64,000 nucleotides of DNA from a virus (Duplodnaviria; Caudoviricetes), in the IMG/VR virus record IMGVR_UViG_3300008255_000137, positions 3,502 through 67,501 of that record. One strand, given 5' to 3'. How positions within the stretch are numbered: the stretch's first letter is position 1; the number at the start of each line of letters is the position of its first letter. The position numbers and the translations under genes are program-made. Below the pieces are notes generated by a model that had not been told where the DNA came from, made no database searches, and was given only the letters and a program-made list of their open reading frames with translations. Below, piece by piece: positions 46,148-63,391 of the stretch.

Positions 46148-47040
46148 ATTTTCCTCAATTCATCAAAGAACCAATCCGTTGCCGGTCCCCGCATGGGATA
46201 GTCCACATGCGGATTCGGGATTTTATTGCCGAAAAACTCGTGGGAGTAAAGCCAGAAGTGGCCGTACTTTTCGAGATTCAGCTTGATATAACGGATTAGA
46301 TTTTGCTCCGTTTTAAGATATTCGCACCAGATGCCTGGACTCACTTTCGGGGAAACTTCCGCTTTTTTCCAACTTCGCTCCCACTTCCACCACTCCCAAC
46401 AATCAATACCTTTTTTGTATGTTTCTTCCGTAAAGTGGTGCAAGTCTCCGGGGAACTGCCGCATCGTCCAGCCGTATGAATACGGCATCTGTCCATGAAT
46501 AGGAATACCGGCTTGAACCAGATATTCCAGGATCAAATAGGCATGGACTTTCCAGAGGTCTTCCAGACCATAGTTCCGGCACTGGACACACCAGCACCGC
46601 TCGGTAGGCAGCTTGCCCTTATAAAATGGGACGATTTCCGATTTATATTGCGGAGGTGTAAGATGCTCCAAATCCCAGATCAACCCGTCCAGATGATGCT
46701 CCTGGTAAAAATCAACGGCAGGAGTCACGCGGGAACTGATGTAAGCACTGGAAGTTGGACATGGAGTTTTTCTTAGATAGCGGCCATCTTGAGTTTGCCA
46801 CTGCTGCGTATCGGGAACGGTGTAGTAGATTGGGTCTCGAACCCATAAGGGCACCAGAAAGATTTTACAGGACGCTTTGTACCGAGAAATAGTTTGAACG
46901 ACGATCTCCTTGGTATCGTAATATCCAGAGCTTTTTCCCCACGGCAGATCATGAGCGCACACCAACAGCGTGTCGATGCCGGAGTCGACCAGCTTGTCGA
47001 GAAACTCAAAGTTCGGCCAGAGGATGTAGGCTGCTTTCAT
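46144..47040 (-). CDS. Glycoside hydrolase-like TIM-barrel protein (start reassigned to MKAAYIL)
   Basis: TAATG coupling and GGAG RBS; LDGLIWDLEH. Confidence 0.5.
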   Translation of the reverse strand: MKAAYILWPNFEFLDKLVDSGIDTLLVCAHDLPWGKSSGYYDTKEIVVQTISRYKASCKIFLVPLWVRDPIYYTVPDTQQWQTQDGRYLRKTPCPTSSAYISSRVTPAVDFYQEHHLDGLIWDLEHLTPPQYKSEIVPFYKGKLPTERCWCVQCRNYGLEDLWKVHAYLILEYLVQAGIPIHGQMPYSYGWTMRQFPGDLHHFTEETYKKGIDCWEWWKWERSWKKAEVSPKVSPGIWCEYLKTEQNLIRYIKLNLEKYGHFWLYSHEFFGNKIPNPHVDYPMRGPATDWFFDELRKI

Positions 47041-47351
47041 TACTCCTCCGTTATGGTCATTTGAACATCTTTTTCCCACTTATTATTCAAGCTGGTTAAA
47101 GCCTTGAACGTTATCTTGTAAGGGGAGCTTGCTTCTGAGCCTGCCTGAACCCTTATCTGAAGAGCACTTCCACTGACTGCTTTTGATCCTGATCCAAGAA
47201 CAGTGCTTGAAGCATCCGCTCCATCTACATCGGCAGCAGTCACTTCACAACTGGCCAGAACCAAAGTTTCATCTGTCTCCATGTTATTTTCAAAGTTGGC
47301 TGAAATAATCATGGACTCATAACTTTGTTTGGTAAAATTCTCAAGAGCCAT
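47040..47351 (-). CDS. Small virion adaptor-like protein following the fibre-like gene
   Basis: FTKQSYE..ISANF..QIRVQAG..YKITFKALT..WEKD; short beta-sandwich pattern typical of proteins downstream of phage fibres. Confidence 0.5.
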   Translation of the reverse strand: MALENFTKQSYESMIISANFENNMETDETLVLASCEVTAADVDGADASSTVLGSGSKAVSGSALQIRVQAGSEASSPYKITFKALTSLNNKWEKDVQMTITEE

Positions 47352-47362: not shown

Positions 47363-50152
47363 TTAAGAATCATATAGTTCGGTTGTTACTTCTGATCGGT
47401 AGAATTCTTTTGTTACTTCTGATCGGTAGAATTCTTTTGTTACTTCTGATCGGTAGAATTCATAATTCACGGGAGCAAATGAGACTGAACTAATAGAATA
47501 AGAACTACTGCTGCTTGACAAACTGCTCTTTGAGGAACTTGAACTGCTTGAGAATGAGCTACTGGAAGAACTGATACTTAAAGAATTACTGCTACTGGAG
47601 GAGATGCTGTTAGAAGAAGAACTTGAACTGGAAGAAATTGAGATGGAAGAAGAACTACTGGAACTACTTGAAATTGAACTACTGCTGGAACTTGAAAGGG
47701 AACTGGAGGATGAACTTGATGAACTTTTACAACTACTTGAGGAACTGGATATTGAACTTGATGAAGAACTGCTTAAACTAAAGGAACTGGAGGAAGAAGA
47801 ACTACTGGACGATAGAGAAAAACTACTGGAACTGCTGTGGGAAGAAGAGTTTGAGGATGAGGAGGATGAAGAATATGAGCTTGAACTTGATGAAGAACTG
47901 GTGGAACTACTGGAGGAGGAACTGGAGGAGGAACTGGAATAGCTTGAAGAAGAAATTGAACTACTCGAACTTGAACTGCTTAACGAACTACTTGATGATG
48001 AACTTAAACTACTTGAAGAGGATGAGGATGAAAAACTTATCGATTCAGAAAAGGAACTGAATGAAGAACTGGAGCTTGATTTACTACTTGACGAAGAAGA
48101 TACCGAAAAAACCGAACTGGAAGAGGAGGAGGATAAAGACAAACAACTGGAACTACTACTTGAAGAACTTGATCGACTTGAGGATGAGCTACTACTTTTT
48201 GAACTCGAACTACTTGAAATAGAACTTGAAGAAGAGAAAGATATACTACTGGAAGAGGAGGAACTGCTGCTAAAAGAGGATGAAGATGAAGAAGATTTAC
48301 TACTACTTGAACTGGATGAAGATTGAGAACTTGATGAGGAACTACTTGAAAAAGAAGAGCTTGAACTTGAAGAAGAACTTGAAGAACTTTTACAGGATGA
48401 GGAAGAGGAGGAGCTTTTACTTGATGAGGAGCTACTGCTTCTTGAGCTTGAAGAAGAAGATAAACTACTACTTGAAGAAGAAGATAAACTACTACTTGAG
48501 GATGAAGAAATACTACTGGATGATGATATGGATGAACTACTTGAGGATGATATGCTACTCGATGAAGAGCTTGATGAAGAACTGGATGACCGAGAACTGG
48601 AACTTGAGCTACTTAAACTTGAAGAACTTGAACTTGATTGAGAAGACGAGCTTGAACTTGATCTACAAGAGCTTGAGGAACTACTCTTTGAGCTTGATGA
48701 ACTGCTTGATAAACTACTACTTGAATGAGAACTGGAACTGGAAGAAGAAAGAGAACTTGATGAACTGCTACTTAGAGACGATGAGGATACAGATGAAGAA
48801 GAAGAGCTTGATACTGAACTACTTGAAGACGAACTATAACTTGAGGACGAGCTTGAAAGCGAACTTGAACTGGATGAGGATAGACTTGAACTTGATGAAG
48901 ATGAGCTTGAGTTAGATGAAGATGAGGAAGAGCTTATCGAGCTTGAAGATGAACTACTGCTGCTGGAAGAAACACTCGATGATGAGGAAGATAAACTTGA
49001 AGAACTACTACTTGAACTTGACGATTGGCTTGATGAGGATGATGAACTGGAAGATATACTATTGCTACTACTGGAAGATATTGAACTGCTACTGCTTGAA
49101 CTGTAACTTGAAGAACTGGAAGAAATACTTGATGATGAAATGGAACTACTACTTGAACTTGATATAGAGCTTGAAGACAAGGACGAAGACGACCTGGAAC
49201 TTGAGCTACTACTCGAATTTGAACTGGATGAAGAAGAGGATTTTGAGCTTGAGGACGAAGACGAGGATATGCTGCTACTTGAGGAACTTGACTGAGAAGA
49301 ACTCGAAGATGAGGAAAATGAAGAGCTTGATGATGAAGAACTAATACTACTGGAAGAAGAGGACGAAAGTGAACTCGACGATCGACTACTTGAAGAACTT
49401 GAAGACTGACTACTCGAACTTGAAGAGGAAAGAGAAGAACTGGAACTGCTTATAGAACTTGAAGACGAGCTACTTTGAGAACTCGATGAAGACGACCGGC
49501 TCGATGACGATGAACTTAAACTCGAAGAACTTGAATTTGAAGAACTACTCGCCGCCTCATTCAAATCCAGGTTCTGGATGAAGCTGTTGTTGGTTACGGC
49601 CCATTCTACATTTGCAGACTGAATTGCATAAAGCAAATCGTAATCGTTCTGCTCTCCGACACTACTGTCGATAGATAAGGTTTCCTGTAGCGTCCCGGTG
49701 TGGCTTCCGGTTCGGATTTCGGCGGTAAGCTGTCCGGTGCTGTTTACTCCGGCATCATCGTCCCTCGGCATGGTAATGAAATACAACACGTCAGCAGACG
49801 ATCCAAACGACTCGATATCACCAATTTCCACTCCGGCTTCTAAAATACCAAGAAAAAGGCCCTCGCTGTACTGAAAAATAACTCCGTCACTGCTCGGATT
49901 TTCGTACTGACCCATATAATCATCCGGGCCGCCATTCATCAGCGTCAGAAAATTAAAAAAACCGTTTACTACGCCATACTGCACCTCAAATTGAAGATTG
50001 AAATCTCCACCAAAATAACCGGAACCGAAGTCATAGTAGGTATAAGCATCCTCATCATTGCCAAGGTCCGTCGCCGTGACCCTAGTCATGGTCTTGGCAA
50101 TATGACTGTTCGGGTCAACCTCGGTATATGTTGTGAAGTCCTGGTAGGCCAT
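47363..50152 (-). CDS. Giant poly-serine protein: ~200-aa globular (ConA-like) head, ~690-aa poly-Ser tract, 3x EFYRSEVT C-terminal repeat
   Basis: One continuous 929-aa ORF, coupled to the upstream gene. Confidence 0.85.
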   Translation of the reverse strand: MAYQDFTTYTEVDPNSHIAKTMTRVTATDLGNDEDAYTYYDFGSGYFGGDFNLQFEVQYGVVNGFFNFLTLMNGGPDDYMGQYENPSSDGVIFQYSEGLFLGILEAGVEIGDIESFGSSADVLYFITMPRDDDAGVNSTGQLTAEIRTGSHTGTLQETLSIDSSVGEQNDYDLLYAIQSANVEWAVTNNSFIQNLDLNEAASSSSNSSSSSLSSSSSSRSSSSSSQSSSSSSSISSSSSSLSSSSSSSQSSSSSSSRSSSSLSSSSSSSISSSSSSSSFSSSSSSSQSSSSSSSISSSSSSSSKSSSSSSSNSSSSSSSRSSSSLSSSSISSSSSSSISSSSISSSSSSYSSSSSSSISSSSSNSISSSSSSSSSQSSSSSSSSSSLSSSSSSVSSSSSSSSSSSISSSSSSSNSSSSSSSSSLSSSSSSSLSSSSSSYSSSSSSSVSSSSSSSVSSSSLSSSSSSSLSSSSSSSHSSSSLSSSSSSSKSSSSSSCRSSSSSSSQSSSSSSSLSSSSSSSRSSSSSSSSSSSSISSSSSSSISSSSSISSSSSSSLSSSSSSSLSSSSSSRSSSSSSSKSSSSSSSCKSSSSSSSSSSSSFSSSSSSSSQSSSSSSSSKSSSSSSSFSSSSSSSSSISFSSSSSISSSSSSKSSSSSSSRSSSSSSSSSCLSLSSSSSSSVFSVSSSSSSKSSSSSSFSSFSESISFSSSSSSSSLSSSSSSSLSSSSSSSSISSSSYSSSSSSSSSSSSTSSSSSSSSYSSSSSSSNSSSHSSSSSFSLSSSSSSSSSSFSLSSSSSSSISSSSSSCKSSSSSSSSSLSSSSSSSISSSSSSSSSISISSSSSSSSNSISSSSSNSLSISSSSSSFSSSSSSSKSSLSSSSSSYSISSVSFAPVNYEFYRSEVTKEFYRSEVTKEFYRSEVTTELYDS
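47384..47461. repeat. 27-bp tandem repeat x3 (encodes EFYRSEVTK)
   Basis: tgttacttctgatcggtagaattcttt at 47384, 47411 and 47438 (third copy partial). Confidence 0.95.
47480..49549 (-). repeat. Poly-serine coding tract (~690 aa, residues 202-891)
   Basis: Ser runs broken by single I/L/R/K/N/Q/Y/F/C/V residues; both AGY and TCN codons used. Confidence 0.97.
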
Positions 50153-50518
50153 TTAGATATTATCCAAATCCGGCTCCCAGGCCGTTGAAGTAAAGAACTG
50201 CTTGCGCTGAACGCCTATCTGCTCGGACACTTTCTGATTCATCGGTCGCCATCTTTTTAAAATAAAGTCCGCTTGTTCGGCCTCGGTCAGTCGTGGTTTG
50301 TAAGGATACAGTGCCTTGAGCTTTGCCGGAATCTTAATGGCTTCGGACGAGAAAACCTTGGGAGCTTGTTCGGGTGCGTAGCCATTATCATACTGATCCC
50401 GAGTCAGTCCAAACTTCCGCCAATCCCGAAACAAGTTGTGTAGAAGCCTCAGCTTTTCTTGCATCCGATAAAGATACTCTGTTCGTTCTCTTGGTGTGTT
50501 GCAATCTGCTGGATACAT
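50153..50518 (-). CDS. Hypothetical protein
   Basis: 121-aa ORF coupled on both sides. Confidence 0.6.
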   Translation of the reverse strand: MYPADCNTPRERTEYLYRMQEKLRLLHNLFRDWRKFGLTRDQYDNGYAPEQAPKVFSSEAIKIPAKLKALYPYKPRLTEAEQADFILKRWRPMNQKVSEQIGVQRKQFFTSTAWEPDLDNI

Positions 50519-50522
50519 CTAT

Positions 50523-50831
50523 CTACCCTCCATACTCATAGTGATTGCCGTCGTTGTGTCGACCTCCCCATTTCATCCCCTGCTTTTCCCACCACTCCCC
50601 AAGGCATCGGTGACTCTCGGTGTCGGTGAGATATTCCCCGGTCTTCCGGTCGTAGAGATTCAAATCGATTGCCAACCCCTCGTGGTGCTTGCTCTGTAGG
50701 CTTCCATAGGGGCACCGCTGATCCCGGAAGACATCTCCTATCGAAATATCAAAACCAAGCTCGAAGGCCATGTCGACCAGCCTTGGAACCATCCGGCTGA
50801 AGGCTATTCTTTTTTCTTTGAGCGTTGCCAT
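50523..50831 (-). CDS. Endolysin, peptidase M15C-like
   Basis: SKHHEGLAIDLN..KWGGRHNDGNHYE (Zn ligands H, D, H). Confidence 0.85.
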   Translation of the reverse strand: MATLKEKRIAFSRMVPRLVDMAFELGFDISIGDVFRDQRCPYGSLQSKHHEGLAIDLNLYDRKTGEYLTDTESHRCLGEWWEKQGMKWGGRHNDGNHYEYGG

Positions 50832-51007
50832 GAGTGCCTTTCAATTTTGTCCAAAATCTCGTCCGTGCAGTCGATGACATTGATCTCGTCTATGTGCGGG
50901 CACCGGAGCTTGATCTCCCAGTAAAGGTCGCTTCGTCCCCGCTTCGGCAGCTTTTCGATCCTCTTTCCGCAGTGGGGACATATCTTAGCTTCCTCCGGTC
51001 CGGTCAT
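50804..51007 (-). CDS. Hypothetical protein
   Basis: CPHCG motif; overlaps neighbours. Confidence 0.4.
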   Translation of the reverse strand: MTGPEEAKICPHCGKRIEKLPKRGRSDLYWEIKLRCPHIDEINVIDCTDEILDKIERHSWQRSKKKE

Positions 51008-51287
51008 TGGACCGTCTCAACTGCTTCTTTATCTCAACGATGCTTTCCTTCATTTGCCGGACCTCCACATTCTGCGTCTCAACCTTTGCGCTCAACGCTC
51101 CGATCTGGTCGGACAATTTGCTCTGGGTCGCCAGAATGTTGCTCCCAAAGAAAAGCAGCACAGCCCCCAATCCTCCGAGGACCAGCGAGAACGTGAGCCA
51201 GGGGACCCGCTTCCGCATGTCTGCCCAGATAATGTCCAGCTTCCTATCAACGGGATCACAGGGGACCTTGCATTCTCCATCAACCAT
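50985..51287 (-). CDS. Single-TM coiled-coil protein (holin/antiholin-like)
   Basis: TM segment WLTFSLVLGGLGAVLLFFG then coiled coil; just upstream of the endolysin. Confidence 0.55.
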   Translation of the reverse strand: MVDGECKVPCDPVDRKLDIIWADMRKRVPWLTFSLVLGGLGAVLLFFGSNILATQSKLSDQIGALSAKVETQNVEVRQMKESIVEIKKQLRRSNDRTGGS

Positions 51288-52224
51288 TTTTATTCTCCTT
51301 TATCCACCACCTTTCTTTGAGTATATTTTCATCTTTTGTTTCTTCATACTCCTTTAATATTTTGTATTCGGAAGACATAAATCTTTCATCCAAATACTCA
51401 GTTTCAGGCGGTGCTTTTCTATACCTGTAGGAATAACCCAACTCACCATGAATATGCCTGAATCCTACTATATCAAACCAAGTTCCTCCTTTAACATGAA
51501 GTTGAGTATTAAATGGATTCTTTTCCGGATAAGCAATTTTCACTTTGCAACTTTCTGCCGCAAAGGCCATTCTCCCTTCACAATTTCCCATCTCCATACA
51601 GGTTCTTTCATAATTCTCAAATGGAACAAAATTCTCTTCAAAGTGTTTCATCATCTTCAACAATGCTTCTCTTTTAACCAGCATTCCTGTAGTATTTAAA
51701 ACGGGTCTGCCTCCATTCACTTCATACCCGACTGGAAGAAGATCAGCATCCCCAAGAAGATCAAACAACCGATCAAAATTTTCCGGCTTCTCAAGAATGC
51801 AATCTCCATTTGCACAATAGATGTATTCAAACCCACTTACCACAGCAATTCCAAACTTCAACAACCAGAAATAAGGATAAAGCACCCCTCCCCATGTCTG
51901 ATGATGAGGCATTACAAAAGTATCTACTTTATCCATTACGTCTCTGGGCGGCATCACATCATTGAAGGTCACTTGAGGTCTTTGTGGATCGAAATAATTG
52001 TCATAAGCAAGAACTACCCAGTATCCGGTTCTTGAGTGGGTTTCTATAGAGGCTTTTAAGAAGGCTCGATTTCCCGGGTGAGAAGTTAAAAGAATGCCTG
52101 TATTCTTTAAGGCTCTTTTCGCCCACTCATCGCATTCCATGTATCTTCTCAGCAGTTCTCGAAAATCATTTTTGTCCTGCTCAGAATATCTTGGATCATC
52201 CAGATCGCTTCTTCTAAAGCCCAT
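51280..52224 (-). CDS. Putative GT-A glycosyltransferase-like protein (NGDC motif)
   Basis: ILLTSHPG..VLAYDN..IYCANGDCILEK; paralog of the next gene. Confidence 0.55.
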   Translation of the reverse strand: MGFRRSDLDDPRYSEQDKNDFRELLRRYMECDEWAKRALKNTGILLTSHPGNRAFLKASIETHSRTGYWVVLAYDNYFDPQRPQVTFNDVMPPRDVMDKVDTFVMPHHQTWGGVLYPYFWLLKFGIAVVSGFEYIYCANGDCILEKPENFDRLFDLLGDADLLPVGYEVNGGRPVLNTTGMLVKREALLKMMKHFEENFVPFENYERTCMEMGNCEGRMAFAAESCKVKIAYPEKNPFNTQLHVKGGTWFDIVGFRHIHGELGYSYRYRKAPPETEYLDERFMSSEYKILKEYEETKDENILKERWWIKENKNG

Positions 52225-53251
52225 TTTTCTCTCTTTCTACAAATTCATTGTATCTCTCAAGTGGGTAATAGAATCTATCCCACCAACTATCCTCTGACTG
52301 ATCCCACAGTTGATAAATGTATCTTCTGTCTCCTGTTTCATAATATTTTTTCAAGGGGTCCTGTCCGCCAGTGGAAAGATATTTTGAGTATCTCATATCA
52401 AAGAACTTTCTTTCTACAGGCTCCCTTCTTTCAATGGCGGCGGTCAAGTACTCTGCTGAAAGATTTCTATATCCCACCAATTTCTTCCAAGTACTATTTT
52501 GATTGTATCTTGAATAGTGATCCACACTATTTATATCGGGCTCCATGGGCTGCTCCGGAGCCACAGTTTCCTTTAAATCTAAAACTCTAATGGCCTCATC
52601 CAAAATAATTTCAGGACTATGAAAAGACATCACGGATACGTTATAAAAATTGCAAAAGTATTCCACTATTTTAAAAAGGGCTTCTGCCTTAAAAAGAATG
52701 GCACAGGTGTGAATAGTATTCCTCTCTCTGGAAACGGACATCAAATCCCCATCTCCGAGTACATCAATTAAATCTTGTATTCCTTCCGATTTCTCCCAAA
52801 TACAATCTCCATTTACAGTAAAGATGTATTCCAGATTAGAAAAACTGGATAACGCTCCAGCCGCATAAATTATATCAAAAAACCAACCTACCCTTTTTTC
52901 ATTGTCATAGGTAGGGTGCTTAAACACCCATGAATGAGGAAGAAGAAAAACATCTGGAGTCGGAAAAATATCTTTCAACTCCGTATTTTTTATATTCCAG
53001 TATTTAAGAGGATTATCATAAGCACAAATCACAAAGGCCCCCGATAATCGATAATTAGTTAAGGTTGCTTTTAAGAAAGGAAGATGTCCATGCCAGGAAG
53101 TCACAATGATTGCAACTTTCTTCTCAAAAGGAACACAATTATAATTCAAACTCAAATCCCCCCAATTTGGTCTCAAATCAAATCTGCTCGCATTAGGAGT
53201 ATGATTGAATGGAAGAATACCACTTATTTTCTTTTCTTCTTCGGAGATCAT
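52214..53251 (-). CDS. Putative GT-A glycosyltransferase-like protein (NGDC motif)
   Basis: IIVTSWHGH..ICAYDN..IFTVNGDCIWEK. Confidence 0.55.
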   Translation of the reverse strand: MISEEEKKISGILPFNHTPNASRFDLRPNWGDLSLNYNCVPFEKKVAIIVTSWHGHLPFLKATLTNYRLSGAFVICAYDNPLKYWNIKNTELKDIFPTPDVFLLPHSWVFKHPTYDNEKRVGWFFDIIYAAGALSSFSNLEYIFTVNGDCIWEKSEGIQDLIDVLGDGDLMSVSRERNTIHTCAILFKAEALFKIVEYFCNFYNVSVMSFHSPEIILDEAIRVLDLKETVAPEQPMEPDINSVDHYSRYNQNSTWKKLVGYRNLSAEYLTAAIERREPVERKFFDMRYSKYLSTGGQDPLKKYYETGDRRYIYQLWDQSEDSWWDRFYYPLERYNEFVEREKNGL

Positions 53252-53605: not shown

Positions 53606-54241
53606 TCATGACTTATACCCTGGTTGATCCAACAACTTCTTTCTTATCATTGTTAATCCCACATTCCATGCCGAGTGTGGAAAAGTAAAAACATTCCATA
53701 AGTCTTCTCTTCCTTCTAAAAACTTTCTCAAACGATAAACATCTCCACATCGACTCGGTCCTAAATACTCATCATTCAGTGGCATTGTGTCATGAAGAAA
53801 AATATAACCACCAGGAACAGTCAATTCAAAAGCATTATCAAAATCCCTTTTCACTTGAAGAAATTCATGTTCACCATCAATAAAAGTCAAAGCAATAGGA
53901 GTGAATTTTATATTCTTGAAAAAATTATCGGATGAATTACAAATAATTACTGCATCATCATTAAAATATCCTCCTACTGTTTTACAATTCTCAATAACAC
54001 TTCTCTGGATATCACAATGATATACTTTTCGATGATATTTTTTAGCAAGCCAGGAAAGATAAATTGAGGTTTCACAGACTCCAACTTCAATAATATCTCC
54101 CTTAATATAATGAAGAACAAAGTCAGAAAGCATTCCGAATAATCCCCATCTCTCCCATTTGATGTTCTCAGAATATGGAAAGGACTTCCAAGAAGAAGGA
54201 TTTACATAATCCATCAATTCTCTTGATCCGGGGTGCTCCAC
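53606..54241 (-). CDS. Class I SAM O-methyltransferase (Methyltransf_24/TylF-like)
   Basis: IIEVGVCE, FIDGEH, IFLHD. Confidence 0.85.
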   Translation of the reverse strand: MEHPGSRELMDYVNPSSWKSFPYSENIKWERWGLFGMLSDFVLHYIKGDIIEVGVCETSIYLSWLAKKYHRKVYHCDIQRSVIENCKTVGGYFNDDAVIICNSSDNFFKNIKFTPIALTFIDGEHEFLQVKRDFDNAFELTVPGGYIFLHDTMPLNDEYLGPSRCGDVYRLRKFLEGREDLWNVFTFPHSAWNVGLTMIRKKLLDQPGYKS

Positions 54242-54242
54242 T

Positions 54243-54830
54243 TTATTCTCCTTTCTTTATTAAAACCGTCAATGAAGGAAAATTATAGTAGGTTCCATAT
54301 TGATAAAATCGATTCACTATTACATTGGTCTCAATCGCTTTTTTGATGGAAGACTTGTTGTACTTTTTCATCCACTCAATATTGTCTCTTTCTTCTGACC
54401 CACCTTCAAATAAAATCAATCCTGACATTCTTAAAATAGGATGCCACTTATCAATCATAAAATTAAAAATATCTCCCGTGTTGCTTAAGTCTGCATGAAG
54501 TTGACATATACTTTTCTTCTCATAATCTTCATGAACTTTAAAGGCGTCTGCTTTTTTTAAAGAAACATACTTCAGCAGTCCTTTGCTATTTAAAATATCC
54601 TTTACCTTTTCTTCATTCCCATGGTTGTGCGGATAATCCTCCCACAGATCATAACAACAAAGATGGCCACGATGAGAATGAAAAATATGATTGCGCTCAA
54701 GGCCCAAAGCTGTCCAAAATGCTGAATATCCATCCAGTACTCCTAACTCCACGCAAGAGTGGGGCTTAAAAGAAACCACCGTGTTTCTAAAAATAGGCCC
54801 ATAATTATTTTGTAAATAAGAGGATCTCAA
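54243..54830 (-). CDS. Class I SAM methyltransferase
   Basis: CVELGVLDGYS, LHADLSN. Confidence 0.75.
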   Translation of the reverse strand: MRSSYLQNNYGPIFRNTVVSFKPHSCVELGVLDGYSAFWTALGLERNHIFHSHRGHLCCYDLWEDYPHNHGNEEKVKDILNSKGLLKYVSLKKADAFKVHEDYEKKSICQLHADLSNTGDIFNFMIDKWHPILRMSGLILFEGGSEERDNIEWMKKYNKSSIKKAIETNVIVNRFYQYGTYYNFPSLTVLIKKGE

Positions 54831-55348
54831 ATCTCTTTTCCATTCTCTATCTTGAAACAGTCCTTCAAGTTTAAATTCAAGTTTCTATAGAAAACTATCT
54901 TTTCTCCAAAGGCCAATTTTAGCTTTTCTTGATAATCAAAAGAATCGACTGCTGCAATATGATCCCAATCTTTAACAAGCAAAGCCAGAACTACATCAGT
55001 TCCTCTTCCTACATTTGAAATATAAATGGAATCATAAAGCTCTGATTTGGCCTCTATTTCTTGCATTCGCTCAATTCTTTTCTTCGATTCTTCAATAATT
55101 TTATCAATAGAAAAATTTACATTTCCTATCAGTCTTCTTGGAATTGGATTATTTCTGTAAGCATCAAATCCTATATACCAGCATTTGAGTATTTCCAGAT
55201 CCCGATAATCTGTGCACCAAAAGTTCTTTCCAGAACCCTTACAGATTTGATTCTCTAAAGGAAAAACTGGATAGTAATTGATACTCTTGATAGTGTTTGC
55301 TACAAAAGAATTTTTTATCAAAAGTATTTCCCACTCTTTAAAATTCAC
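54827..55348 (-). CDS. Hypothetical protein in the glycan cluster
   Basis: 173-aa ORF coupled on both sides; VGRGTD..AVD is weakly Rossmann-like. Confidence 0.5.
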   Translation of the reverse strand: MNFKEWEILLIKNSFVANTIKSINYYPVFPLENQICKGSGKNFWCTDYRDLEILKCWYIGFDAYRNNPIPRRLIGNVNFSIDKIIEESKKRIERMQEIEAKSELYDSIYISNVGRGTDVVLALLVKDWDHIAAVDSFDYQEKLKLAFGEKIVFYRNLNLNLKDCFKIENGKEI

Positions 55349-56445
55349 TACCAGCCTTCCTTAATTGAATTTACAATATACTCTCTATCTTCTTTTGTTA
55401 ACCACCAGCCTACGGGAATACAAATCATACTTTTTACTATTCTATCAGTCATAGGAAGGCTTCTTTCAAATTCCCTTACGCAAGAGTGTTTATCATTTCT
55501 TTCATGAACCCTTGACACCATTATTCCTTTCTCTCCCATCTTTCGGGCAAATCCTGTCCGATCCTCCACAAAAAGAGTGTAAAGCCAATAAGAGGATTTT
55601 CTATTATCCCTCCTTTGGGTCAATCGTATTCCAGGAACAGATCTTAATTCTCTGTTATAAAATTCAGCATTGCTTCTGGCTATTTCAATATTTCTGTCCA
55701 CTTCTTCCATGTTCTTCAAACCAATTGTGGCACAAACATCATTCATGTGATACTTGTACCCATACTGATAAATATCTTCCTCACAGCGCATATCTTTTCT
55801 CGGACCTTCCCGATCAATTCCATACCATCGAAGAAGTTTTCCTTCATCATAAACTTTTCTTTCTTTGCAAAATAAAGCTCCACCATCCACTGAATTCAAA
55901 TTTTTTATCGCCTGAAAACTGAACATACAAAAATCTGAATACTTGCAATCTCCGATAATAGAATTCCGGTAAGTAGAACCATAAGCATGGGCGGCATCCT
56001 CGATTATAACGACACCTCTTTCCTTACAAATTGAGTGAATTTTCTCCATATCGCAAGGATATCCGCCCCAGTGCATTACTATCACTGCCTTTGTTCTTCC
56101 ACAAATATTCTGCTCAATCTCATAAGGACTTATATTCAAATCTTCTTCTATATCTGTCCAAACTATTTTTGCTCCTTGGTAAAGAACCGGCCAGTTGGTA
56201 GCAGTACAGGTTAATGGAGTACAAAGTACCTCATCCCCCGGCCCTACTCCAGCCAATCTCAATGCAAGATGAATTCCATGAGTCCCGGCAGACAAAGAAA
56301 GACAATATGGATTTTTAACTTTGTCAGATAAAGCCCCTTCAAACTCTATCACCTTTTCTCCCTGGCCAATCCATCCTGAATGAAGAACAGATAAAAGATC
56401 CTTATCCACATTCTTACTCATAAAGACTTTAAACAATGGAATCAT
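55348..56445 (-). CDS. DegT/DnrJ/EryC1/StrS PLP-dependent sugar aminotransferase
   Basis: SGWIGQG, SAGTHGIHLAL, IEDAAHA, FSFQAIKNL, DGG. Confidence 0.93.
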   Translation of the reverse strand: MIPLFKVFMSKNVDKDLLSVLHSGWIGQGEKVIEFEGALSDKVKNPYCLSLSAGTHGIHLALRLAGVGPGDEVLCTPLTCTATNWPVLYQGAKIVWTDIEEDLNISPYEIEQNICGRTKAVIVMHWGGYPCDMEKIHSICKERGVVIIEDAAHAYGSTYRNSIIGDCKYSDFCMFSFQAIKNLNSVDGGALFCKERKVYDEGKLLRWYGIDREGPRKDMRCEEDIYQYGYKYHMNDVCATIGLKNMEEVDRNIEIARSNAEFYNRELRSVPGIRLTQRRDNRKSSYWLYTLFVEDRTGFARKMGEKGIMVSRVHERNDKHSCVREFERSLPMTDRIVKSMICIPVGWWLTKEDREYIVNSIKEGW

Positions 56446-57074
56446 TTCAACCTCCTTAAATATCCGGAAGGGTTAAATGTCATTCCAAGTCTTTCCCTAT
56501 AAGGGTCAACTTCAAAACTATCATTCACAAAAAGAAAATCTTGAACGGCTTCATAAGGACCTTTATCATACTCCCATTCAACGGGATGCCCACTTACATG
56601 AGTGTCTTCCACAATCAAATAATTTCCCTGGGAAACATATTGACTATAAATTTCCAATTCTCTCACTACATGATTATAAGAATGAAAGGAATCTAAAATG
56701 ACCATGGTACTAAAATTTTTACAGTATTTCTCAACTTCACTTACTACATCAAAGTCAATACTTGATCCAATTATTTGAATAATAGAATCCCACCATGGAA
56801 ACCACATGGAAGAAAAGTCCACCTTCTTCTCTTTATCAATTGTGACAACTCTTCCTTGATTATCAAACAACTTTAAGATGGAAGCATAAAACAGAGCGGA
56901 ACCTCCCTGACCGGTTCCAGTCTCAATAATTACATCGGGCTCTGTTTCCCAAATTATCTCCTGAATTATCATGGCATCATTCGGGAGTTTCCACATCGGA
57001 ACACCCATCCAGGTTATGGTTTCCCACAAACGACTCTTCTCAAAATAATTGTGGTATTCATCCGATATTTTCAT
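56442..57074 (-). CDS. CmcI-family (rhamnosyl O-methyltransferase-like) protein
   Basis: WMGVPMWKLPND..IIETGTGQGGSALF..ILDSFH..LIVED. Confidence 0.88.
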   Translation of the reverse strand: MKISDEYHNYFEKSRLWETITWMGVPMWKLPNDAMIIQEIIWETEPDVIIETGTGQGGSALFYASILKLFDNQGRVVTIDKEKKVDFSSMWFPWWDSIIQIIGSSIDFDVVSEVEKYCKNFSTMVILDSFHSYNHVVRELEIYSQYVSQGNYLIVEDTHVSGHPVEWEYDKGPYEAVQDFLFVNDSFEVDPYRERLGMTFNPSGYLRRLK

Positions 57075-59959
57075 GATAGAATTTCCTCAATCCATTTATC
57101 GGGTGAATACTCCCTTCTTGCGTGCTCTTTTGCGCTCTCCCCCATTCGAGCCCTTAACTCTGGATTTTGTAATTCTTCCAAAGCAAAGATATAATCTTTT
57201 ACTGAATTACAAAGAAAACCTGAAGAAGGAATCACTCTGTCTTTTGCGCCTGAATGATTGTCTGCCACCACCGGAAGACCCACCGACTGCGCCTCCATGA
57301 TGACTTTGGGACCTTGATCTTCGTATCCTTCGGGAAGACAATACCAGAAACAATTTCCCAAGGACAGAAACTCATCTACTGAGGGATCATTTCTCTTATG
57401 ACAAACAACTTTAAATCGCTCCACAAACTCATTGGATAGAAAAGTTGGGGAAGGCATCAATCTCAAGGAGGCTTCATCTTCTATGCTATCAAATACCTCC
57501 TGAAGAATTTCATTGAAGTTCTTTGGATACTTAGAATCTCCTTGACTGCTGTGTCTCACAATTTTAAGGTTTCCAGAATAATCAACTTTCCTATCAAAGA
57601 ACTTGGAAAGATCCATTGGGGGAGCCATAGAACGGGTCTTTGCTAAAGGAATTCTCTCCTTCAAAGTATTCTCCAAGGAGGAGTTGAGAAATAAATATTT
57701 GTCCCAATCTCTTGTCCACTTGGCTTTATCTGTTCCAATGCCCCCCATTCTAAAATTCACTACCATCACTTTTCTGGTGGCTTTCAATTCAGAAAAGACT
57801 TCTTCTATCTCTGGTTTAGTGAACTCCCATACCCAATCATTCACATACAAAACCAAAAGATCGGTTTCCTCTTTTATTTTTTTCAAGTCATTCAGGAATA
57901 TAGTATTACTATTCCCTTTGTTTCTGAAGGTTCCACAAGGAGCCTGTTTTGGAGAAATGTATTCTGTATTCCATCCTCTTTTATCAAACTCATTCAATAA
58001 CCAAGTGACTGATCCTTCCGCTCCACCTTCTCCTCTTCCATTAAATACTATCCTGACTCTGTTTGAATTAGGGGCTTTAACTGGAGGGGTGCAAGCACCG
58101 ACTTCTGTCTTTCTTTTCCAGAAGGCGGTTCGGTGCCCTCCCTGAGAAATCTTTTCATAACTTTCTTTTAAATGCTTTTCTGCCCACTGTAATTCTGTGG
58201 GACGGCCGGCATCATGGATCAAAACTCTATCAAAATTCTTTGCTATGATGAAGGAGGGCTCCCGATTTTTTCCTCCACCAGGACCATCAACAAAAACCAG
58301 GTCTGCCTTTTCAGGAATAAATATCTTCTTTCCATCCCACAAACGAATATCTAAGGAAGGATTCATTTTCTTAAATCGATCAATATCTTCCTGTCGAGTT
58401 TCATAAGGAACAACTTTCACCCCAAATGAATCAAATAGCAAAGTAGAAAGGCCCACACCGAATTCACAGATTGATTTAACTTCCTCATTTTTGATTATCT
58501 GTTTAATGTATTCCCAGTCTTTATCAGTAATGGATGATCCTCCCCAGTCCATACCAAAGGGCCTCTCGGGTTCTTTTTCTTGAACAAATACCTTCGGCGG
58601 AGTCTTTACTACATTAATTAATTTGGATCGTCCAGAGGATTTATCAAATTCAATGGACAATCTTCCTCCATTATAGTATTTTAAGATTGCCTGAACTACA
58701 TCCTCAGAAGAAATGATGTCCGCACAAAGAGGAACTTTTTGACCGGATTCATCCAAAGTAATTCCGTTAGGACATCCATTGATATCACACTTCCAACAGG
58801 CGGTTGGGGCATCTTGATTTGTGATTGTGCAAGGCAAGCAGCCATCAGTCGCCAAGTATTGCTGTCCAGGATATCTGGTAAACCACACGGGCTCTCTTGC
58901 TCCACTTATTACCACGCATGGTTTATTAAATACGGCTGCAAGATGCATCTGGAAGGAAACAAGTCCGGCAGATCCTTCGCAGTAATTAAACAGATTCAAC
59001 AAATCCCTAAATCCAGTATTTCTGTCTTCTGTCTTTCCGATAAAATCAATCACATTCCTTCCTGAAAGTTTTGGGTGCTTATGTCCTCTTGATCCTATCT
59101 GGACGAACTTTATTTGAGGCAGCTTTTCAACTACCTCTTTCCATTTCCCGAATTCAAAAGTCTTTGCTGTCCAGTCCCCTTTTTCGCCTGCGGTAATCAA
59201 CCAATACGGGGGCTCAATAATTGGAGGACGATTGTATTCTTCTTCGGTCATATAAAGATCCCCACGGATGGGACCTTGCTCAATTTTTATTCCAAGAATG
59301 TTCTCTATTGAAATTCTAAAAGCATTGGCAAAATGATTATCTGATCTGTTGGAAGCATTGGTTGCTTTTCCAGGGCCAATATACAATTTAACCGCTCCGT
59401 CTTTCTCAATGGCTTCCTTTACTGCCCTTCTATTGTATTCCACCATCTCTGAATCAGAGGGTTTTCTTTCTTCCTTTTTAAACGACAGAGGGTCAATAAT
59501 GTCTGTCCAAGTTTCTCTATCGATGTTTGGATTAAAATCCCACATGTGAGAAACGGTGGATTGAACCTGAACTTTTATATTCGGAAATTGTCTTTTAAAA
59601 TCCCGAATAGCGCAGGTGAACATTATAATGTCCCCGATTGCCTGTCGATTATGAAAGACAATTCTCTTTGGTAAAAGAACTTCCTTTTCTTCTTTTTCTT
59701 CATTTACAAAACTGGCTCCAGCCTCATGATAAATCTTTTCAAGAATTTCCTCCCTGACTTCTCTGTTTGACGGAAAAAGAATTGAAGTATGGGCATGATC
59801 CTGTTTTCCACAGCGTACTGCTACAATAGAATCATGGTATTCCAGCCCCTCCAAATTCGGATCTTTCTCAAGAATAGAGATGTTTTCCCCCATGTGAAAA
59901 CGTAAATTCTTAACTTTCTCTTTCATCAGTCTCATGACTTTTTGATTCATCATTTCCAA
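57071..59959 (-). CDS. Multidomain GT9 (heptosyltransferase-like) + methyltransferase + GT4 glycosyltransferase
   Basis: AIGDIIM..KTFEFGKW..MHLAAVFNKP; CEFGVGLST..VFVDG; GGAE..EDQGPKVIMEAQSVGLPVV. Confidence 0.85.
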   Translation of the reverse strand: MEMMNQKVMRLMKEKVKNLRFHMGENISILEKDPNLEGLEYHDSIVAVRCGKQDHAHTSILFPSNREVREEILEKIYHEAGASFVNEEKEEKEVLLPKRIVFHNRQAIGDIIMFTCAIRDFKRQFPNIKVQVQSTVSHMWDFNPNIDRETWTDIIDPLSFKKEERKPSDSEMVEYNRRAVKEAIEKDGAVKLYIGPGKATNASNRSDNHFANAFRISIENILGIKIEQGPIRGDLYMTEEEYNRPPIIEPPYWLITAGEKGDWTAKTFEFGKWKEVVEKLPQIKFVQIGSRGHKHPKLSGRNVIDFIGKTEDRNTGFRDLLNLFNYCEGSAGLVSFQMHLAAVFNKPCVVISGAREPVWFTRYPGQQYLATDGCLPCTITNQDAPTACWKCDINGCPNGITLDESGQKVPLCADIISSEDVVQAILKYYNGGRLSIEFDKSSGRSKLINVVKTPPKVFVQEKEPERPFGMDWGGSSITDKDWEYIKQIIKNEEVKSICEFGVGLSTLLFDSFGVKVVPYETRQEDIDRFKKMNPSLDIRLWDGKKIFIPEKADLVFVDGPGGGKNREPSFIIAKNFDRVLIHDAGRPTELQWAEKHLKESYEKISQGGHRTAFWKRKTEVGACTPPVKAPNSNRVRIVFNGRGEGGAEGSVTWLLNEFDKRGWNTEYISPKQAPCGTFRNKGNSNTIFLNDLKKIKEETDLLVLYVNDWVWEFTKPEIEEVFSELKATRKVMVVNFRMGGIGTDKAKWTRDWDKYLFLNSSLENTLKERIPLAKTRSMAPPMDLSKFFDRKVDYSGNLKIVRHSSQGDSKYPKNFNEILQEVFDSIEDEASLRLMPSPTFLSNEFVERFKVVCHKRNDPSVDEFLSLGNCFWYCLPEGYEDQGPKVIMEAQSVGLPVVADNHSGAKDRVIPSSGFLCNSVKDYIFALEELQNPELRARMGESAKEHARREYSPDKWIEEILS

Positions 59960-61201
59960 TCAACCTTTCTCCAATCTCCACAGACACCTGGGGGATCGGT
60001 CTTCAGTTTGTCCAAGATAAGTAGATTTGCAATCCAGGGATTCAATCCCCTTCAGCATTTCCTTCACATGACCAGTTTCAAACTCTTCCGGAGCATTATG
60101 ACTTTCTATATAGCACCTCCTCCATTTGATGTTTTTAAGAATAACAAACATATTCCCATAAATATGCTTGTAAATAGAAAGAGCAAATACCACATCAATC
60201 TCTTTATGACAAAAGTAATTCCTGATCTCTGAAATCAAAGAAGTTACCCTGTTCAAATTTCTTTGAATAAAGTTAATCGGAAGTTTATTGTAATGGGCCA
60301 AATCTCTTGCACAATCAATGTAGTCTTTTTCGTTGTCTATTCCAAGAAGTTTGCTTGCTCCTCTCCTTCTTGCTTCCACGAGAATTGAACCAAGATTGCA
60401 TCCTAAATCAAGAATGGACAGACCAGTCATATTTCTTTCCACATCCATTTTTTCATATCGATACAAGGTGTCCCTTGATCCAGACTTATACTTTCCATCA
60501 ATAAAGTAAGTCTGATAATTTGCCCTTCTCTGCTTATGAGGAAACTGTGTCAGATTAAAAATTCTATTTTCCAGTTCCTCCTTATTTAATAAAGGAATTT
60601 CTGTATCAGAAAGAGAATGAGGGAGACTCCATTTAGGCATATCCCATATTGTTCTTCGGACATCTACCAAATATCCATTCACAATATTCCCAGGTTTGAA
60701 GTAATCATTGTATGCTCCAATGGTCATCTCAATTTTAGACTCATTCAGAAATTTATCAAAAGATTGTTTATTAAAATCTCCCTTTGAAGAAAGTTTTCTT
60801 GCCGAAACCATTTCATAACCATACTTTCCAATAACATCACAGTGCTCAGTTCCATAAGGAAAATATGAAGTAAATTTTCTTATATAAATCATATCCCCTA
60901 TCGGTGGAGACAGATTCCTTTCTGAAAGTAATTTCATCATTTTGTATTCAAGAAGAATTGATCGAAGAGATTCTTTTTCAAATCCTTCCGAGTTCTGATT
61001 AAAACTTCCTTTAATAATTTCTTCCTGATTTCTCCCTTTTTCCCAATCTCTGTAGGATTCAATTTTTCCATGATGACTCCAGAGTATCTTTATTCCTATT
61101 TCTGGAATCCACACCGAGTGCTTCCCAATTAAGCAGGAATAAGAAAGTCCATCAATACGAATTTCATTCTCAGAAAGGAAAGCGGTATCAAATACTTTCA
61201 T
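59960..61201 (-). CDS. Kinase-like + class I methyltransferase fusion (start reassigned to MKVFD)
   Basis: ATGA overlap at 61198-61201; GIKIL..LLEYKMM..DYFKPGNIVNGYLVD; LDLGCNLG..LLGID. Confidence 0.7.
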   Translation of the reverse strand: MKVFDTAFLSENEIRIDGLSYSCLIGKHSVWIPEIGIKILWSHHGKIESYRDWEKGRNQEEIIKGSFNQNSEGFEKESLRSILLEYKMMKLLSERNLSPPIGDMIYIRKFTSYFPYGTEHCDVIGKYGYEMVSARKLSSKGDFNKQSFDKFLNESKIEMTIGAYNDYFKPGNIVNGYLVDVRRTIWDMPKWSLPHSLSDTEIPLLNKEELENRIFNLTQFPHKQRRANYQTYFIDGKYKSGSRDTLYRYEKMDVERNMTGLSILDLGCNLGSILVEARRRGASKLLGIDNEKDYIDCARDLAHYNKLPINFIQRNLNRVTSLISEIRNYFCHKEIDVVFALSIYKHIYGNMFVILKNIKWRRCYIESHNAPEEFETGHVKEMLKGIESLDCKSTYLGQTEDRSPRCLWRLEKG

Positions 61202-62178
61202 TGTAAAAGCCTTTCTACACTCAATTCCATTTTGGCGTCTTTTCCAGACCATATATCAATTGCATACTGAACTCTTCTTTGAGTGCTGTGATACTTTTGT
61301 CCAAACCAGAAGGCTTTCTGACGAATACATTTTCCCATATCTGGATTATCAATGGAGTAAAATTTATAGAGTTCTTGAAAATGCTCAAAGGACTGATAGC
61401 CCAAGTAGTGATCCCCATCCTTAAAAAAGTAATCCATGTTTGGATGTTTGTTATGAAAATACAAAGCTCCCGCACCCGTATATTGAAACGGACGCACATC
61501 ATTATAAAGATGAATGGACTCCCCCATCTGAAAGCCAATTATTGCCTTAGAGGAGGAAGATACTTCAGCGGTCAAAAATCTGGAATTCCCATAAACTGGA
61601 TCGGGATAAACTCTTACATTGTATTTTGTCTTTAACTTCTCGACAAATTGGGATCGCTCATAATGATAGGGATCTTCCGGGTTCTTTGAAATTCCTCCAG
61701 TAAACACCACATCCCCCTCAAACTCTTTCATCTCTTCCGAGATATCCGACTGATACAAACAGGGGTATGGCCAATGATAGCAAGGAACTTTCCACCATTT
61801 CTCAGACCATTTTTTTCCTTCCCCATTATTTATCAAGACTGCATCCACAATATCATTTATGGGTTGAGGATATCGGGGCTCTGTTCGGGCATCCCCCATG
61901 TGGTAGAAAATAAAGGTTCCCAATTTCTTTCGGCACCATCTCAGAAGATCAAATACTTCTTCTCGATTATGGGGTTTTCTATTAAAAATACAATGAGCAA
62001 AAATTATGTGGGGCTTGAAAAAATCAATCTGCTCCCTCACACTAAGAAGAGGTTGGGATAACAAAGAAACCGGACGGAACCAGGCTCCACAACGAATAGC
62101 CCCTTCCAAAACACCGTATGTAAAATAACTGTAATATCCGGTGTAATCTCCCAGTCCCACAATTCGAGTCTGTTTCAT
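61198..62178 (-). CDS. GT-B glycosyltransferase (CgeB/Glyco_trans_1_2-like)
   Basis: VVFTGG..RSQFVEKL..NDVRPFQYTGAG..KYHSTQRRV. Confidence 0.8.
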   Translation of the reverse strand: MKQTRIVGLGDYTGYYSYFTYGVLEGAIRCGAWFRPVSLLSQPLLSVREQIDFFKPHIIFAHCIFNRKPHNREEVFDLLRWCRKKLGTFIFYHMGDARTEPRYPQPINDIVDAVLINNGEGKKWSEKWWKVPCYHWPYPCLYQSDISEEMKEFEGDVVFTGGISKNPEDPYHYERSQFVEKLKTKYNVRVYPDPVYGNSRFLTAEVSSSSKAIIGFQMGESIHLYNDVRPFQYTGAGALYFHNKHPNMDYFFKDGDHYLGYQSFEHFQELYKFYSIDNPDMGKCIRQKAFWFGQKYHSTQRRVQYAIDIWSGKDAKMELSVERLLQ

Positions 62179-62708
62179 TTTAGAATCATTACTCCCATTC
62201 CATTATACTGGTCTTTCAAGAATGACTCCAAAGAAACCTCTTTCACCTCACTTTCAGAAGTGTGTTTTTTCATTGAATAGTAAGATTTATTTTCATAATT
62301 TTTTATCAAATCAATTACTTCTTCCGGTTTATAGTGCCAGGGTGCCGTATGAACTTTTCCATTGGGGGTGGTGAATACTATTCCTTTACAACTTACGCTA
62401 ATCATATTTTGAATAAAAACTTTGGGATCATAATTGACATGCTCAATCACATCAAAAGCAGTTACATAATCCCAACTCTTTCCTTTTTTAAAATCAACCA
62501 AATCTCTTGAGTCAACAATAAAATCCACTTGCTTCATCAAGGCTCGATTAGCATCAGAAGTAAAAACCTGATTATTTCCTAAAGATAGTCTTTCCTTTGA
62601 GAGTCCTCTTCCCGAGCCTATATCCAAAATCGAACTCCCTTTAATAAATTCTCCAAAAAACTCCTGCCACGCGAATTGAAGGTCTGCTGGGGCTTCTTTT
62701 GAATACAT
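62175..62708 (-). CDS. Class I SAM methyltransferase
   Basis: ILDIGSGRG, VTAFDVIEHV, FTTPN. Confidence 0.88.
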   Translation of the reverse strand: MYSKEAPADLQFAWQEFFGEFIKGSSILDIGSGRGLSKERLSLGNNQVFTSDANRALMKQVDFIVDSRDLVDFKKGKSWDYVTAFDVIEHVNYDPKVFIQNMISVSCKGIVFTTPNGKVHTAPWHYKPEEVIDLIKNYENKSYYSMKKHTSESEVKEVSLESFLKDQYNGMGVMILK

Positions 62709-63391
62709 TAAAATTTTCTCTCCCCTTCTCTCACAGAATTCTGAAAGCCAAGATGTTTCACATAAGCATGAGTTCCTATTCTCCCTAAAAAGTAAGACCC
62801 TACATTTAATATCATCCAGTCTGCTGAAGGCATCTTTTTTCCTCTTTTAACAAGAGGATTTATAAACCAAACAGGATTCAAATTTCTTGGAGGAGTTCTC
62901 CAGAACTTCATTATAAAATTTCTTCTCCATAAAGCTGGGGTGAATGCCCAGTGTGGATTTGTAGTCAGACATACTCCTGATTTTTCCACTTCTTTCTTTT
63001 TCCATCCATGACGTTCTGAGGCAATCTCTCTCTTATGAAAAGCAATTTGATTTACATCCGAATTTTCCTCCATTATTTTAACCATCAGATCCAAATCAAT
63101 TTCCTTGATGACTTCCCAGTCATCCTCAATATTAAAAACATAATCAGTGGCCGTTCTTCTCAATAGAAAATCAATGGAGGGACCTTGATTTATTGGAGGA
63201 TTGTGCATGAATACTTCATCAAAATTCTCTTTGGCTATCCGAATGCATTCCTTGGAAGCCTCTTTATTTAAAACATCCTCATGAAACAAAACTCGAAGTC
63301 TTCCACTATACTTCACAAACTTCTTAAAGGGCTCAAGCGAAGCCTGTAACAGATCAGGGCGAGAAGCAGAAGTGCGAATTACATCAATCAT
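62708..63391 (-). CDS. GT2-like (GT-A) glycosyltransferase
   Basis: VIRTSASRPDLL..FNIEDDW (DxD-like). Confidence 0.8.
   Translation of the reverse strand: MIDVIRTSASRPDLLQASLEPFKKFVKYSGRLRVLFHEDVLNKEASKECIRIAKENFDEVFMHNPPINQGPSIDFLLRRTATDYVFNIEDDWEVIKEIDLDLMVKIMEENSDVNQIAFHKREIASERHGWKKKEVEKSGVCLTTNPHWAFTPALWRRNFIMKFWRTPPRNLNPVWFINPLVKRGKKMPSADWMILNVGSYFLGRIGTHAYVKHLGFQNSVREGERKF

Follow-up and report, generated by a model that had tools for sequence, protein, structure and literature searches.

We analysed a 64-kb window of viral DNA (Duplodnaviria; Caudoviricetes), comprising positions 3,502 to 67,501 of the 67.5-kb IMG/VR record IMGVR_UViG_3300008255_000137, for which the CheckV completeness estimate is 49%. 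The main open reading frames (ORFs) of the window all lie on the minus strand. The subject of this report is one of them, a gene encoding a protein of 929 amino acids (aa) that consists of three parts: a folded domain (residues 1–200), a poly-serine tract (residues 202–891), and a tail formed by the last 38 residues. On the coding strand, approximately 13 kb of sugar genes are followed by a spanin-like gene and an M15 endolysin gene, a 121-aa ORF, and the poly-serine gene. On its 3′ side lie a gene with a match to Gp77, uncharacterised genes, a Neck1/tail-completion gene, the tail genes including the tape measure, and two further tail protein genes. The poly-serine gene thus belongs to a late operon, with the lysis genes on one side of it and the neck and tail genes on the other, which bears out its description as a late gene in an earlier note on this DNA. 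Its ATG directly abuts the stop codon of the 121-aa ORF, and its TAA is followed by a AGGAAGAG ribosome-binding site and then by the next gene, which starts with ATG. The poly-serine gene is therefore a cistron of a tightly packed operon. Promoter-like and terminator-like sites around the gene showed no excess over shuffled sequences.

The poly-serine protein

The tract contains 586 serines in 690 residues (85%), and its reading frame is open throughout. The chance of a 690-codon open frame at the base composition of the tract is approximately 4e-14; in 500 shuffles the longest open stretch was 217 codons, and the other five frames contain between 10 and 158 stops each. All six serine codons are used (AGT 170, TCA 144, TCT 105, TCC 84, AGC 50 and TCG 33), which gives 220 AGY and 366 TCN codons. 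The AGY share of serine codons is 37.5% in the tract compared to 23% elsewhere in the phage, and codon usage is more even in the tract. The codon order looks random, with a lag-1 codon identity of 0.145 against approximately 0.15 expected from the codon frequencies. The autocorrelation of nucleotides and that of codons are both nearly flat, the former with faint bumps at 24 and 48 nucleotides (nt), Tandem Repeats Finder (TRF) reported nothing more than short local arrays of 2–5 copies, and no exact internal repeat exceeds 29 nt. Recent slippage of a DNA unit was considered as the origin of the tract and is ruled out by the random codon order and the small size of the longest repeat.

The 104 residues other than serine are I, L, F, K, N, R, Q, V, Y, C and H, together with one Thr and one Glu; Pro, Gly, Ala and Asp do not occur at all. 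Thr, Pro, Ala and Gly are expected to make up 39% of single-step replacements of serine and account for one of the 104, while 47 of the 104 codons are two substitutions away from every serine codon. We therefore conclude that the composition is selected, both for and against particular residues, rather than being mutational noise, and that P, G, A, T, D and E are selectively kept out. The non-serine residues are also regularly placed: a spacing of eight between them occurs 33 times compared to 5 expected, with a maximum of 15 in 5000 shuffles. The tract has a protein-level period of eight residues (S7X), although at the DNA level it is no repeat. The hydrophobic or basic residue that recurs with this period, together with the exclusion of P, G, A, T, D and E, suggests a constraint of registration or recognition.

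The earlier note had described a near-pure serine frame without stops, its mixed coding by AGY and TCN codons, and the near-absence of Thr, Pro, Gly and acidic residues, and had argued from this against recent slippage and for maintenance at the protein level. These points are all upheld, the last of them by the open frame, the scrambled codons and the selected set of non-serine residues. Its further statement that there is no simple nucleotide repeat is correct for the DNA; it missed the eight-residue period of the protein. In searches with the tract itself, 300 aa used as a locus query matched 595 stretches, none of which was confirmed by tblastn, where low-complexity filtering applies; used as a protein query, it scored none of 8000 candidates; and the ESM Atlas gave weak leads only, all below 0.9.

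The structure of the N-terminal domain was predicted using AlphaFold2 (AF2), with a predicted local distance difference test (pLDDT) score of 94.4. Foldseek matched the model to legume lectins, VIP36 and an alginate lyase. In VIA comparisons its two-sheet jelly-roll superposes on its neighbours over 160–180 aligned residues, with Z of 12–14.7 and a root-mean-square deviation (rmsd) of 3.0–3.5. These neighbours are the thrombospondin C-terminal domain, GH16 enzymes, ERGIC-53 and legume-lectin-like domains, and also CBM66, the L-lectin module of SraP (4m01; Z 12.5, 173 residues aligned), a phage Dit carbohydrate-binding module and a cyanophage tailspike. In sequence, the domain is 4–13% identical to lectins of known structure. 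As modelled, the domain has the concanavalin A (ConA)-like lectin/glucanase fold, and the lectin-like head proposed in the earlier note holds at the level of the fold. The folded domain begins at once: the protein has no signal peptide, hydrophobic N-terminal segment or transmembrane (TM) segment. No LPXTG is present at the C-terminus, and there is no catalytic module; only the 38-residue tail follows the tract. In the DNA this tail contains three perfect copies of a 27-nt unit, which encodes a 9-aa charged/aromatic peptide. Copies this perfect imply either a very recent duplication or variation in copy number.

The tract is reproduced base for base in a 38-kb Joint Genome Institute (JGI) contig from another record (L005), which is identical to the window over 12.4 kb, and in a 3.4-kb Logan contig (L006, SRR6053076), which is identical over window positions 47432–50832; the three assemblies may share underlying reads. 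Misassembly of the tract, which the earlier note had named as a way in which its reading could fail, is unlikely, and repeat collapse is unlikely because no repeat in the tract exceeds 29 nt. The Logan contig stops inside the perfect 27-nt repeat 3′ of the tract, and because of this break the copy number of that repeat is less certain than anything else in the gene. In the JGI and Logan records, the gene callers put three short Glu/Leu/Lys-rich ORFs antisense over the tract and miss the 929-aa gene, and the exact 929-aa protein is absent from a collection of 15 billion proteins. It follows that protein databases under-represent proteins of this kind, and this may be why our literature search on poly-serine in phages or virions found no relevant paper.

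Table 1. Features of the poly-serine locus and related parts of the window (positions are those of the window unless another contig is named)
Feature	Position	Strand	Basis
929-aa poly-serine protein gene, whole ORF	47363..50152	-	929 open codons
N-terminal 200-aa domain, ConA-like (L-type lectin/glucanase fold, as modelled)	49553..50152	-	AF2, Foldseek, VIA
690-aa poly-serine tract, 85% Ser, S7X period	47480..49549	-	Codon tally, spacing test
38-aa C-terminal tail with three perfect 27-nt repeats (47383-47461)	47366..47479	-	TRF
Antisense ORF calls over the tract	47604-49167; L005 7224-8915; L006 1202-3229	+ (window)	JGI/Logan calls
121-aa partner ORF, kept directly upstream of ConA-family genes in other phages	50153..50518	-	Homology
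103-aa protein, weak match to podophage fibre-tail adaptor Gp77	47040..47351	-	PF23148
135-aa poly-serine tract of 737-aa tail protein	33784..34188	-	N-terminal part of protein matches phrog_1887 (tail protein)
49-aa Ser-rich C-terminal tract of 737-aa tail protein	33022..33168	-	Tract scan
90-aa terminal poly-serine tract of 860-aa last tail protein	30436..30705	-	Tract scan
Paralogous pair (314 and 345 aa), predicted GT-A fold, last genes of sugar cluster	51280..53251	-	AF2, Foldseek, VIA
Conserved sugar cassette, six proteins	53606..59959	-	Pfam; homologs in 7-13 of 22 loci, 24-64% identity
Glycosyltransferase-like and methyltransferase genes, phage-specific	59960..63945	-	Pfam; no homologs in 22 loci

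Sugar genes and further serine tracts in the window

The sugar cluster lies a short way upstream on the same strand and, according to Pfam, encodes glycosyltransferases, a DegT aminotransferase, and CmcI-type and other methyltransferases. Its last two genes encode a paralogous pair that received no family assignment in library scans. The 314-aa member was modelled with AF2 using its relatives as the alignment, with a pLDDT of 91.7. Foldseek gave 429 matches to this model (E ≤ 0.001), essentially all of them GT-A glycosyltransferases or related nucleotidyltransferases, and VIA aligned approximately 165–180 residues with Z of 13–14.9 and rmsd of 2.6–3.0. The pair is thus predicted to have the GT-A glycosyltransferase fold; GT1-type (GT-B) domains also occur in the cluster. 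A sequence search of the PDB found nothing for the family of the pair or for the ConA-like family. The six products of the conserved cassette are two Methyltransf_24 proteins, a 173-aa protein, the DegT aminotransferase, the CmcI-type O-methyltransferase, and a 962-aa protein with a C-terminal GT1 domain. None of the cluster enzymes has a TM-like segment, the sole one in the cluster being in a 101-aa ORF, and this fits with action in the cytoplasm.

Serine tracts in the window are limited to three proteins: the 929-aa protein, a 737-aa tail protein, and the 860-aa last tail protein. All are of the S7X style. In the 737-aa protein the tracts flank a second lectin-like domain, and the first of them joins two modules. 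Exact matches common to the tracts of the three proteins are at most 15–19 nt long; the tracts are therefore not recent copies of each other, and gene conversion among them, which was considered as a separate possibility, is ruled out by the same figure. Beyond these two tail-tip proteins, no protein of the tail region contains a serine tract; the capsid gene is off the contig. No relatives of the N-terminal part of the 737-aa protein were found among viral contigs.

Downstream of the poly-serine gene, the match of the 103-aa protein to PF23148 has an E value of 0.006, which is under the curated cut-off. The second gene downstream (46144–47079) encodes a 311-aa Trp-rich and Cys-rich protein with no Pfam, PHROG or NCBIfam match. 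At the far end of the window (547–4206) there is a family A DNA polymerase with a uracil-DNA-glycosylase-like domain, split by an intein with an HNH endonuclease.

Tracts, cassettes and ConA-like domains in other phages

Relatives of the GT-A pair, with 30–57% identity, were found at 22 viral loci in IMG/VR. We counted as a tract any stretch of at least 30 aa with at least 70% Ser within 10 kb, and compared these loci with a small control set of 10 loci fetched via the ConA family or a helicase. Tracts are present in 14 of the 22 loci and in 1 of the 10 controls, where the tract is 38 aa long. The co-occurrence has a Fisher p of 0.006, or 0.011 when three near-identical loci are collapsed, the loci not being phylogenetically independent. 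Most tracts lie 0.9–5 kb downstream on the same strand, and two further GT-A loci have a 29-aa serine tract immediately 3′ of the gene. The serine-bearing proteins across the 22 loci have unrelated globular domains. Conserved enzymes with varying carriers are as expected if the enzymes recognise the tract itself. The genes that follow the cassette in the window have no homologs in the 22 loci.

The 690-aa tract has counterparts in other phages, some of them longer: tracts reach 1034 aa in locus L013, 957–971 aa in L014, L016 and L017, and 892 aa in L018. We note that the giant-tract proteins of L013 (12860–16966), L014 (11614–18318) and L018 (4899–9728) share one module, composed of a Gly run, a short basic motif, approximately 40 more serines and, at the C-terminus, a basic domain of about 70 aa. 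The module, which may serve as an anchor, is not present in the 929-aa protein, whose C-terminus is different from that of its giant-tract relatives and very short. That the basic C-terminal module is retained and the N-terminal domains in front of it vary hints that such proteins are anchored by the C-terminus and carry lectin-like heads at the distal end.

L014, L016 and L017 are near-identical phages from three metagenomes, and a comparison of their 2235-aa protein shows how a tract changes. All the differences are inside the serine tracts, and in all of them serine is kept: there are 3–15 Ser-to-Ser codon changes and a 10-codon indel, compared to no changes in 1055 other codons. The sample is small and some of the changes may be alignment shifts. 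The pattern fits a rapid turnover of the tracts under protein-level constraint, and suggests that the tracts are hot spots of variation. In a separate case (L010, positions 67–3942, from G001, a 188-kb relative), a 1291-aa protein encoded 6 kb upstream of the GT-A pair carries LamG-, SPRY- and discoidin-like modules on S7X-type tracts of 140, 220 and 36 aa. G001 has no member of the ConA family.

The ConA-like family comprises 1316 representative homolog clusters (E ≤ 0.001). Its members are mostly stand-alone proteins of 210–250 aa; some contain tandem copies and some are located terminally in large fibre-like or secreted proteins, and in L003 and L004 the domain is at the head of a 1202-aa fibre-like protein. 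The domain and its relatives belong to no Pfam or PHROG family, and neither the domain nor a typical family member had a tblastn match in 50,697 genomes of isolated phages. Among the best 150 of the 1316 representatives none has a comparable poly-serine tract. The earlier note had proposed a comparison of head homologs and their tract lengths; homologs are indeed found, with other kinds of tail, and longer serine tracts occur on other proteins, as described above. The closest homolog (L002, 44% identity) has approximately 390 aa of Ser-Pro-Ser-X repeats at the position of the tract, P0067 has a tail of approximately 150 aa of Pro/Thr repeats, and P0079 has a tail of approximately 45 aa of Ser/Ala/Pro repeats.

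In L002, GT1/FkbM-methyltransferase, GT1-like and GT2/Methyltransf_24 genes are followed by a 125-aa ORF and then by the ConA protein. The 125-aa ORF has 36% identity to the 121-aa ORF of the window and occupies the same position, so that the local gene order of L002, as judged by homology, matches that of the window; the 121-aa ORF also has 29% identity to an ORF in L008. The L002 phage additionally encodes (676–2619) a 647-aa protein of approximately 40-aa Ser/Ala/Ile-rich repeats, adjoining a gene for a Bbp16-type cement protein. In this phage, the bearer of the closest ConA homolog, the protein may form a head fibre.

Comparison with known systems and proposed function

The nearest functional analogue of the poly-serine protein, by architecture, is the serine-rich repeat protein (SRRP) adhesin of Gram-positive bacteria. 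SRRPs such as SraP, GspB and Fap1 have a lectin-type module and a long Ser-rich stalk, which is O-glycosylated in the cytoplasm by dedicated soluble glycosyltransferases and extended in form. They carry a long N-terminal signal peptide and a C-terminal LPXTG wall anchor, and are exported through the accessory Sec system (SecA2/SecY2 and Asp proteins). The phage protein resembles them in having a long Ser-rich region (690 aa) beside a lectin-fold domain, and the L-lectin module of SraP is one of the structural neighbours of that domain. However, the carrier is a phage rather than a cell wall, and the phage protein has no signal peptide and no LPXTG anchor; no Sec-type match to accessory Sec genes was found in Pfam scans of approximately 45 of the 57 main ORFs of the window. 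The repeat is S7X, in contrast to the alternating Ser-X dipeptides of SRRPs, and the associated enzyme pair is predicted to have the GT-A fold, unlike the GT-B pair GtfA/GtfB. As it has neither export signal nor wall anchor and its repeat type differs, the protein is not a member of the SRRPs.

Among phages, the glycosylation of mycobacteriophage virions, reportedly studied by Freeman et al. (2023, Cell Host Microbe 31:1216), is the nearest precedent. The glycans of these phages are reported to sit at the C-terminal ends of the capsid and tail-tube subunits (cited in PMC12619734), and mycobacteriophages carry glycosyltransferases and methyltransferases beside structural genes, which are thought to decorate virion proteins (as described via PMC12619734 and PMC13313380). 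The window is similar in that phage-encoded glycosyltransferases are located in or beside a structural operon. It differs in that the presumed acceptors are poly-serine tracts of 49–690 aa on tail-tip and lectin-like proteins, and in that the cassette is larger and is common to unrelated uncultured phages. The combination of tract and cassette would best be filed as a variant of phage virion glycosylation with a poly-serine acceptor.

We therefore arrive, with moderate confidence, at a reading in which the tract accepts dense O-glycosylation and serves as the mucin-like stalk of a lectin-like protein associated with the virion. We propose glycosylation because the GT-A pair and the cassette co-occur with poly-serine tracts in other phages, and this co-occurrence gives comparative support to the suggestion in the earlier note that such a tract would probably need to be glycosylated; the glycans themselves we infer. 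Presence in the virion is proposed because the other two serine-tract proteins are tail proteins and because the gene lies near the neck genes and next to the weak Gp77-like match. Late in infection, the soluble cassette enzymes would convert a host nucleotide-sugar into a modified amino-deoxy sugar, probably a methylated one, and the GT-A pair together with the GT-B enzymes would load sugars onto the serines of the three tract proteins in the host cytoplasm. Glycosylation would precede assembly, and the tract proteins would then join the particle. The 690-residue tract would become a hydrated bottle-brush, that is, a stiffened, protease-resistant, mucin-like filament, which might hold the lectin-like module off the particle or might coat the particle. 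By simple arithmetic, the tract would reach 241 nm when fully stretched and approximately 170 nm at a mucin-like 0.25 nm per residue; as an unmodified coil it is estimated to measure approximately 20–25 nm end to end. The stalk of about 240 nm in the earlier note is thus an upper bound, and a mucin-like brush would perhaps reach the 170 nm. The 849-aa tape measure corresponds to an estimated tail length of approximately 127 nm.

Several observations weigh against dense O-glycosylation of a virion protein. Thr is usually as good an O-glycosylation site as Ser and is almost absent from the tract. Eight of the 22 cassette loci have no long tract within 10 kb, and L007 has a ConA homolog with a 150-aa Pro/Thr-rich tail and no glycosyltransferase nearby on its record. 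The control set is small, and the loci are not phylogenetically independent. The head genes are off the contig, in keeping with the completeness of 49%, so that the place of the poly-serine gene in the morphogenetic order is only partly known. Finally, the target of the cassette could be something other than the tract, for example DNA or the host envelope.

The alternative that survives best, which we nevertheless regard as unlikely, is that the tract is an unmodified, flexible entropic tether, in effect a giant version of the poly-serine linkers of Cellvibrionaceae, whose only role is to give reach to the lectin-like module. Such linkers are established in Saccharophagus degradans, where they are 25–58 aa long and lie between the domains of secreted enzymes (PMC2386152; Howard et al. 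2004, cited there). The likeness is clear in the near-pure serine runs beside carbohydrate-binding-type modules, and both the arrangement around the ConA-like domain of the 737-aa tail protein and the tracts that join the LamG-, SPRY- and discoidin-like modules of L010 are what tethers would look like. However, the phage tracts are more than 10-fold longer than known linkers (690–1034 aa), are periodic and are accompanied by glycosyltransferases; the tract of the 860-aa protein is terminal, and only 38 residues follow the 690, so that these are not interdomain linkers. A tether also leaves the co-occurrence with the GT-A pair and the cassette unexplained. In a survey of 102 phage proteomes, the largest low-complexity region was 115 aa (PMC6821194).

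Slightly less probable again is a protein that is not part of the virion, whether glycosylated or not: a late lectin-mucin released at lysis, for example as a binder of matrix or debris or as a receptor decoy. The poly-serine gene directly follows the lysis cassette, the protein matches no PHROG structural family, and the ConA-like family consists mostly of stand-alone proteins of approximately 220 aa and is also found in secreted bacterial surface proteins with signal peptides. The 929-aa protein itself, however, has no signal peptide or TM segment, and its gene is tightly packed with the Gp77-like gene upstream of the neck and tail genes. The same type of tract is present on two tail proteins, and domains of the ConA family are fused to tail-fibre-like proteins in L003 and L004.

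A different serine modification appears improbable. Phosphate, for instance, would make the tract a phosvitin-like or teichoic-acid-like polyanion, with the cassette serving DNA or the host envelope, and the exclusion of acidic residues from the tract is compatible with this. Of the sugar-cluster proteins, the methyltransferase protein at 59960–61252 has no homolog in the 22 cassette loci, unlike the GT-A pair and the sugar genes, which do recur there. A non-functional low-complexity expansion, or an artefact of assembly or annotation in which the antisense Glu/Leu-rich ORFs are the real genes, is very improbable: the JGI and Logan calls do omit the 929-aa ORF in favour of three antisense ORFs and the protein is missing from the collection, but the frame is open against chance with every other frame broken, runs on from a conserved folded domain, lies on the same strand as all 57 other genes, is identical in three assemblies and has a selected composition, and comparable tracts recur in unrelated phages.

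Returning to glycosylated tracts, we suggest tentatively, and at rather less than even chances, that poly-serine is a portable glycosylation tag, and that a horizontally mobile cassette of the GT-A pair and enzymes for methylated amino sugars makes mucin-like glycoproteins, in unrelated phages, of whichever virion proteins carry a serine run. If so, tracts of 700–1000 residues would be filaments of approximately 100 nm or more, which is near to the length of the tail, and would represent a previously undescribed type of bacteriophage virion surface structure. A poly-serine tag with a small cassette would also be a possible tool for phage-based glyco-engineering. For annotation, the gene calls at this locus show that a poly-serine gene can be missed and antisense ORFs called in its place. 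If the tracts are glycosylated, many uncultured phages would have a dense sugar brush on their tails and fibres, made by a transferable set of enzymes with a very simple tag as their recognition signal, and this would bear on how phages stick to hosts, mucus and particles, and on their resistance to proteases and aggregation.

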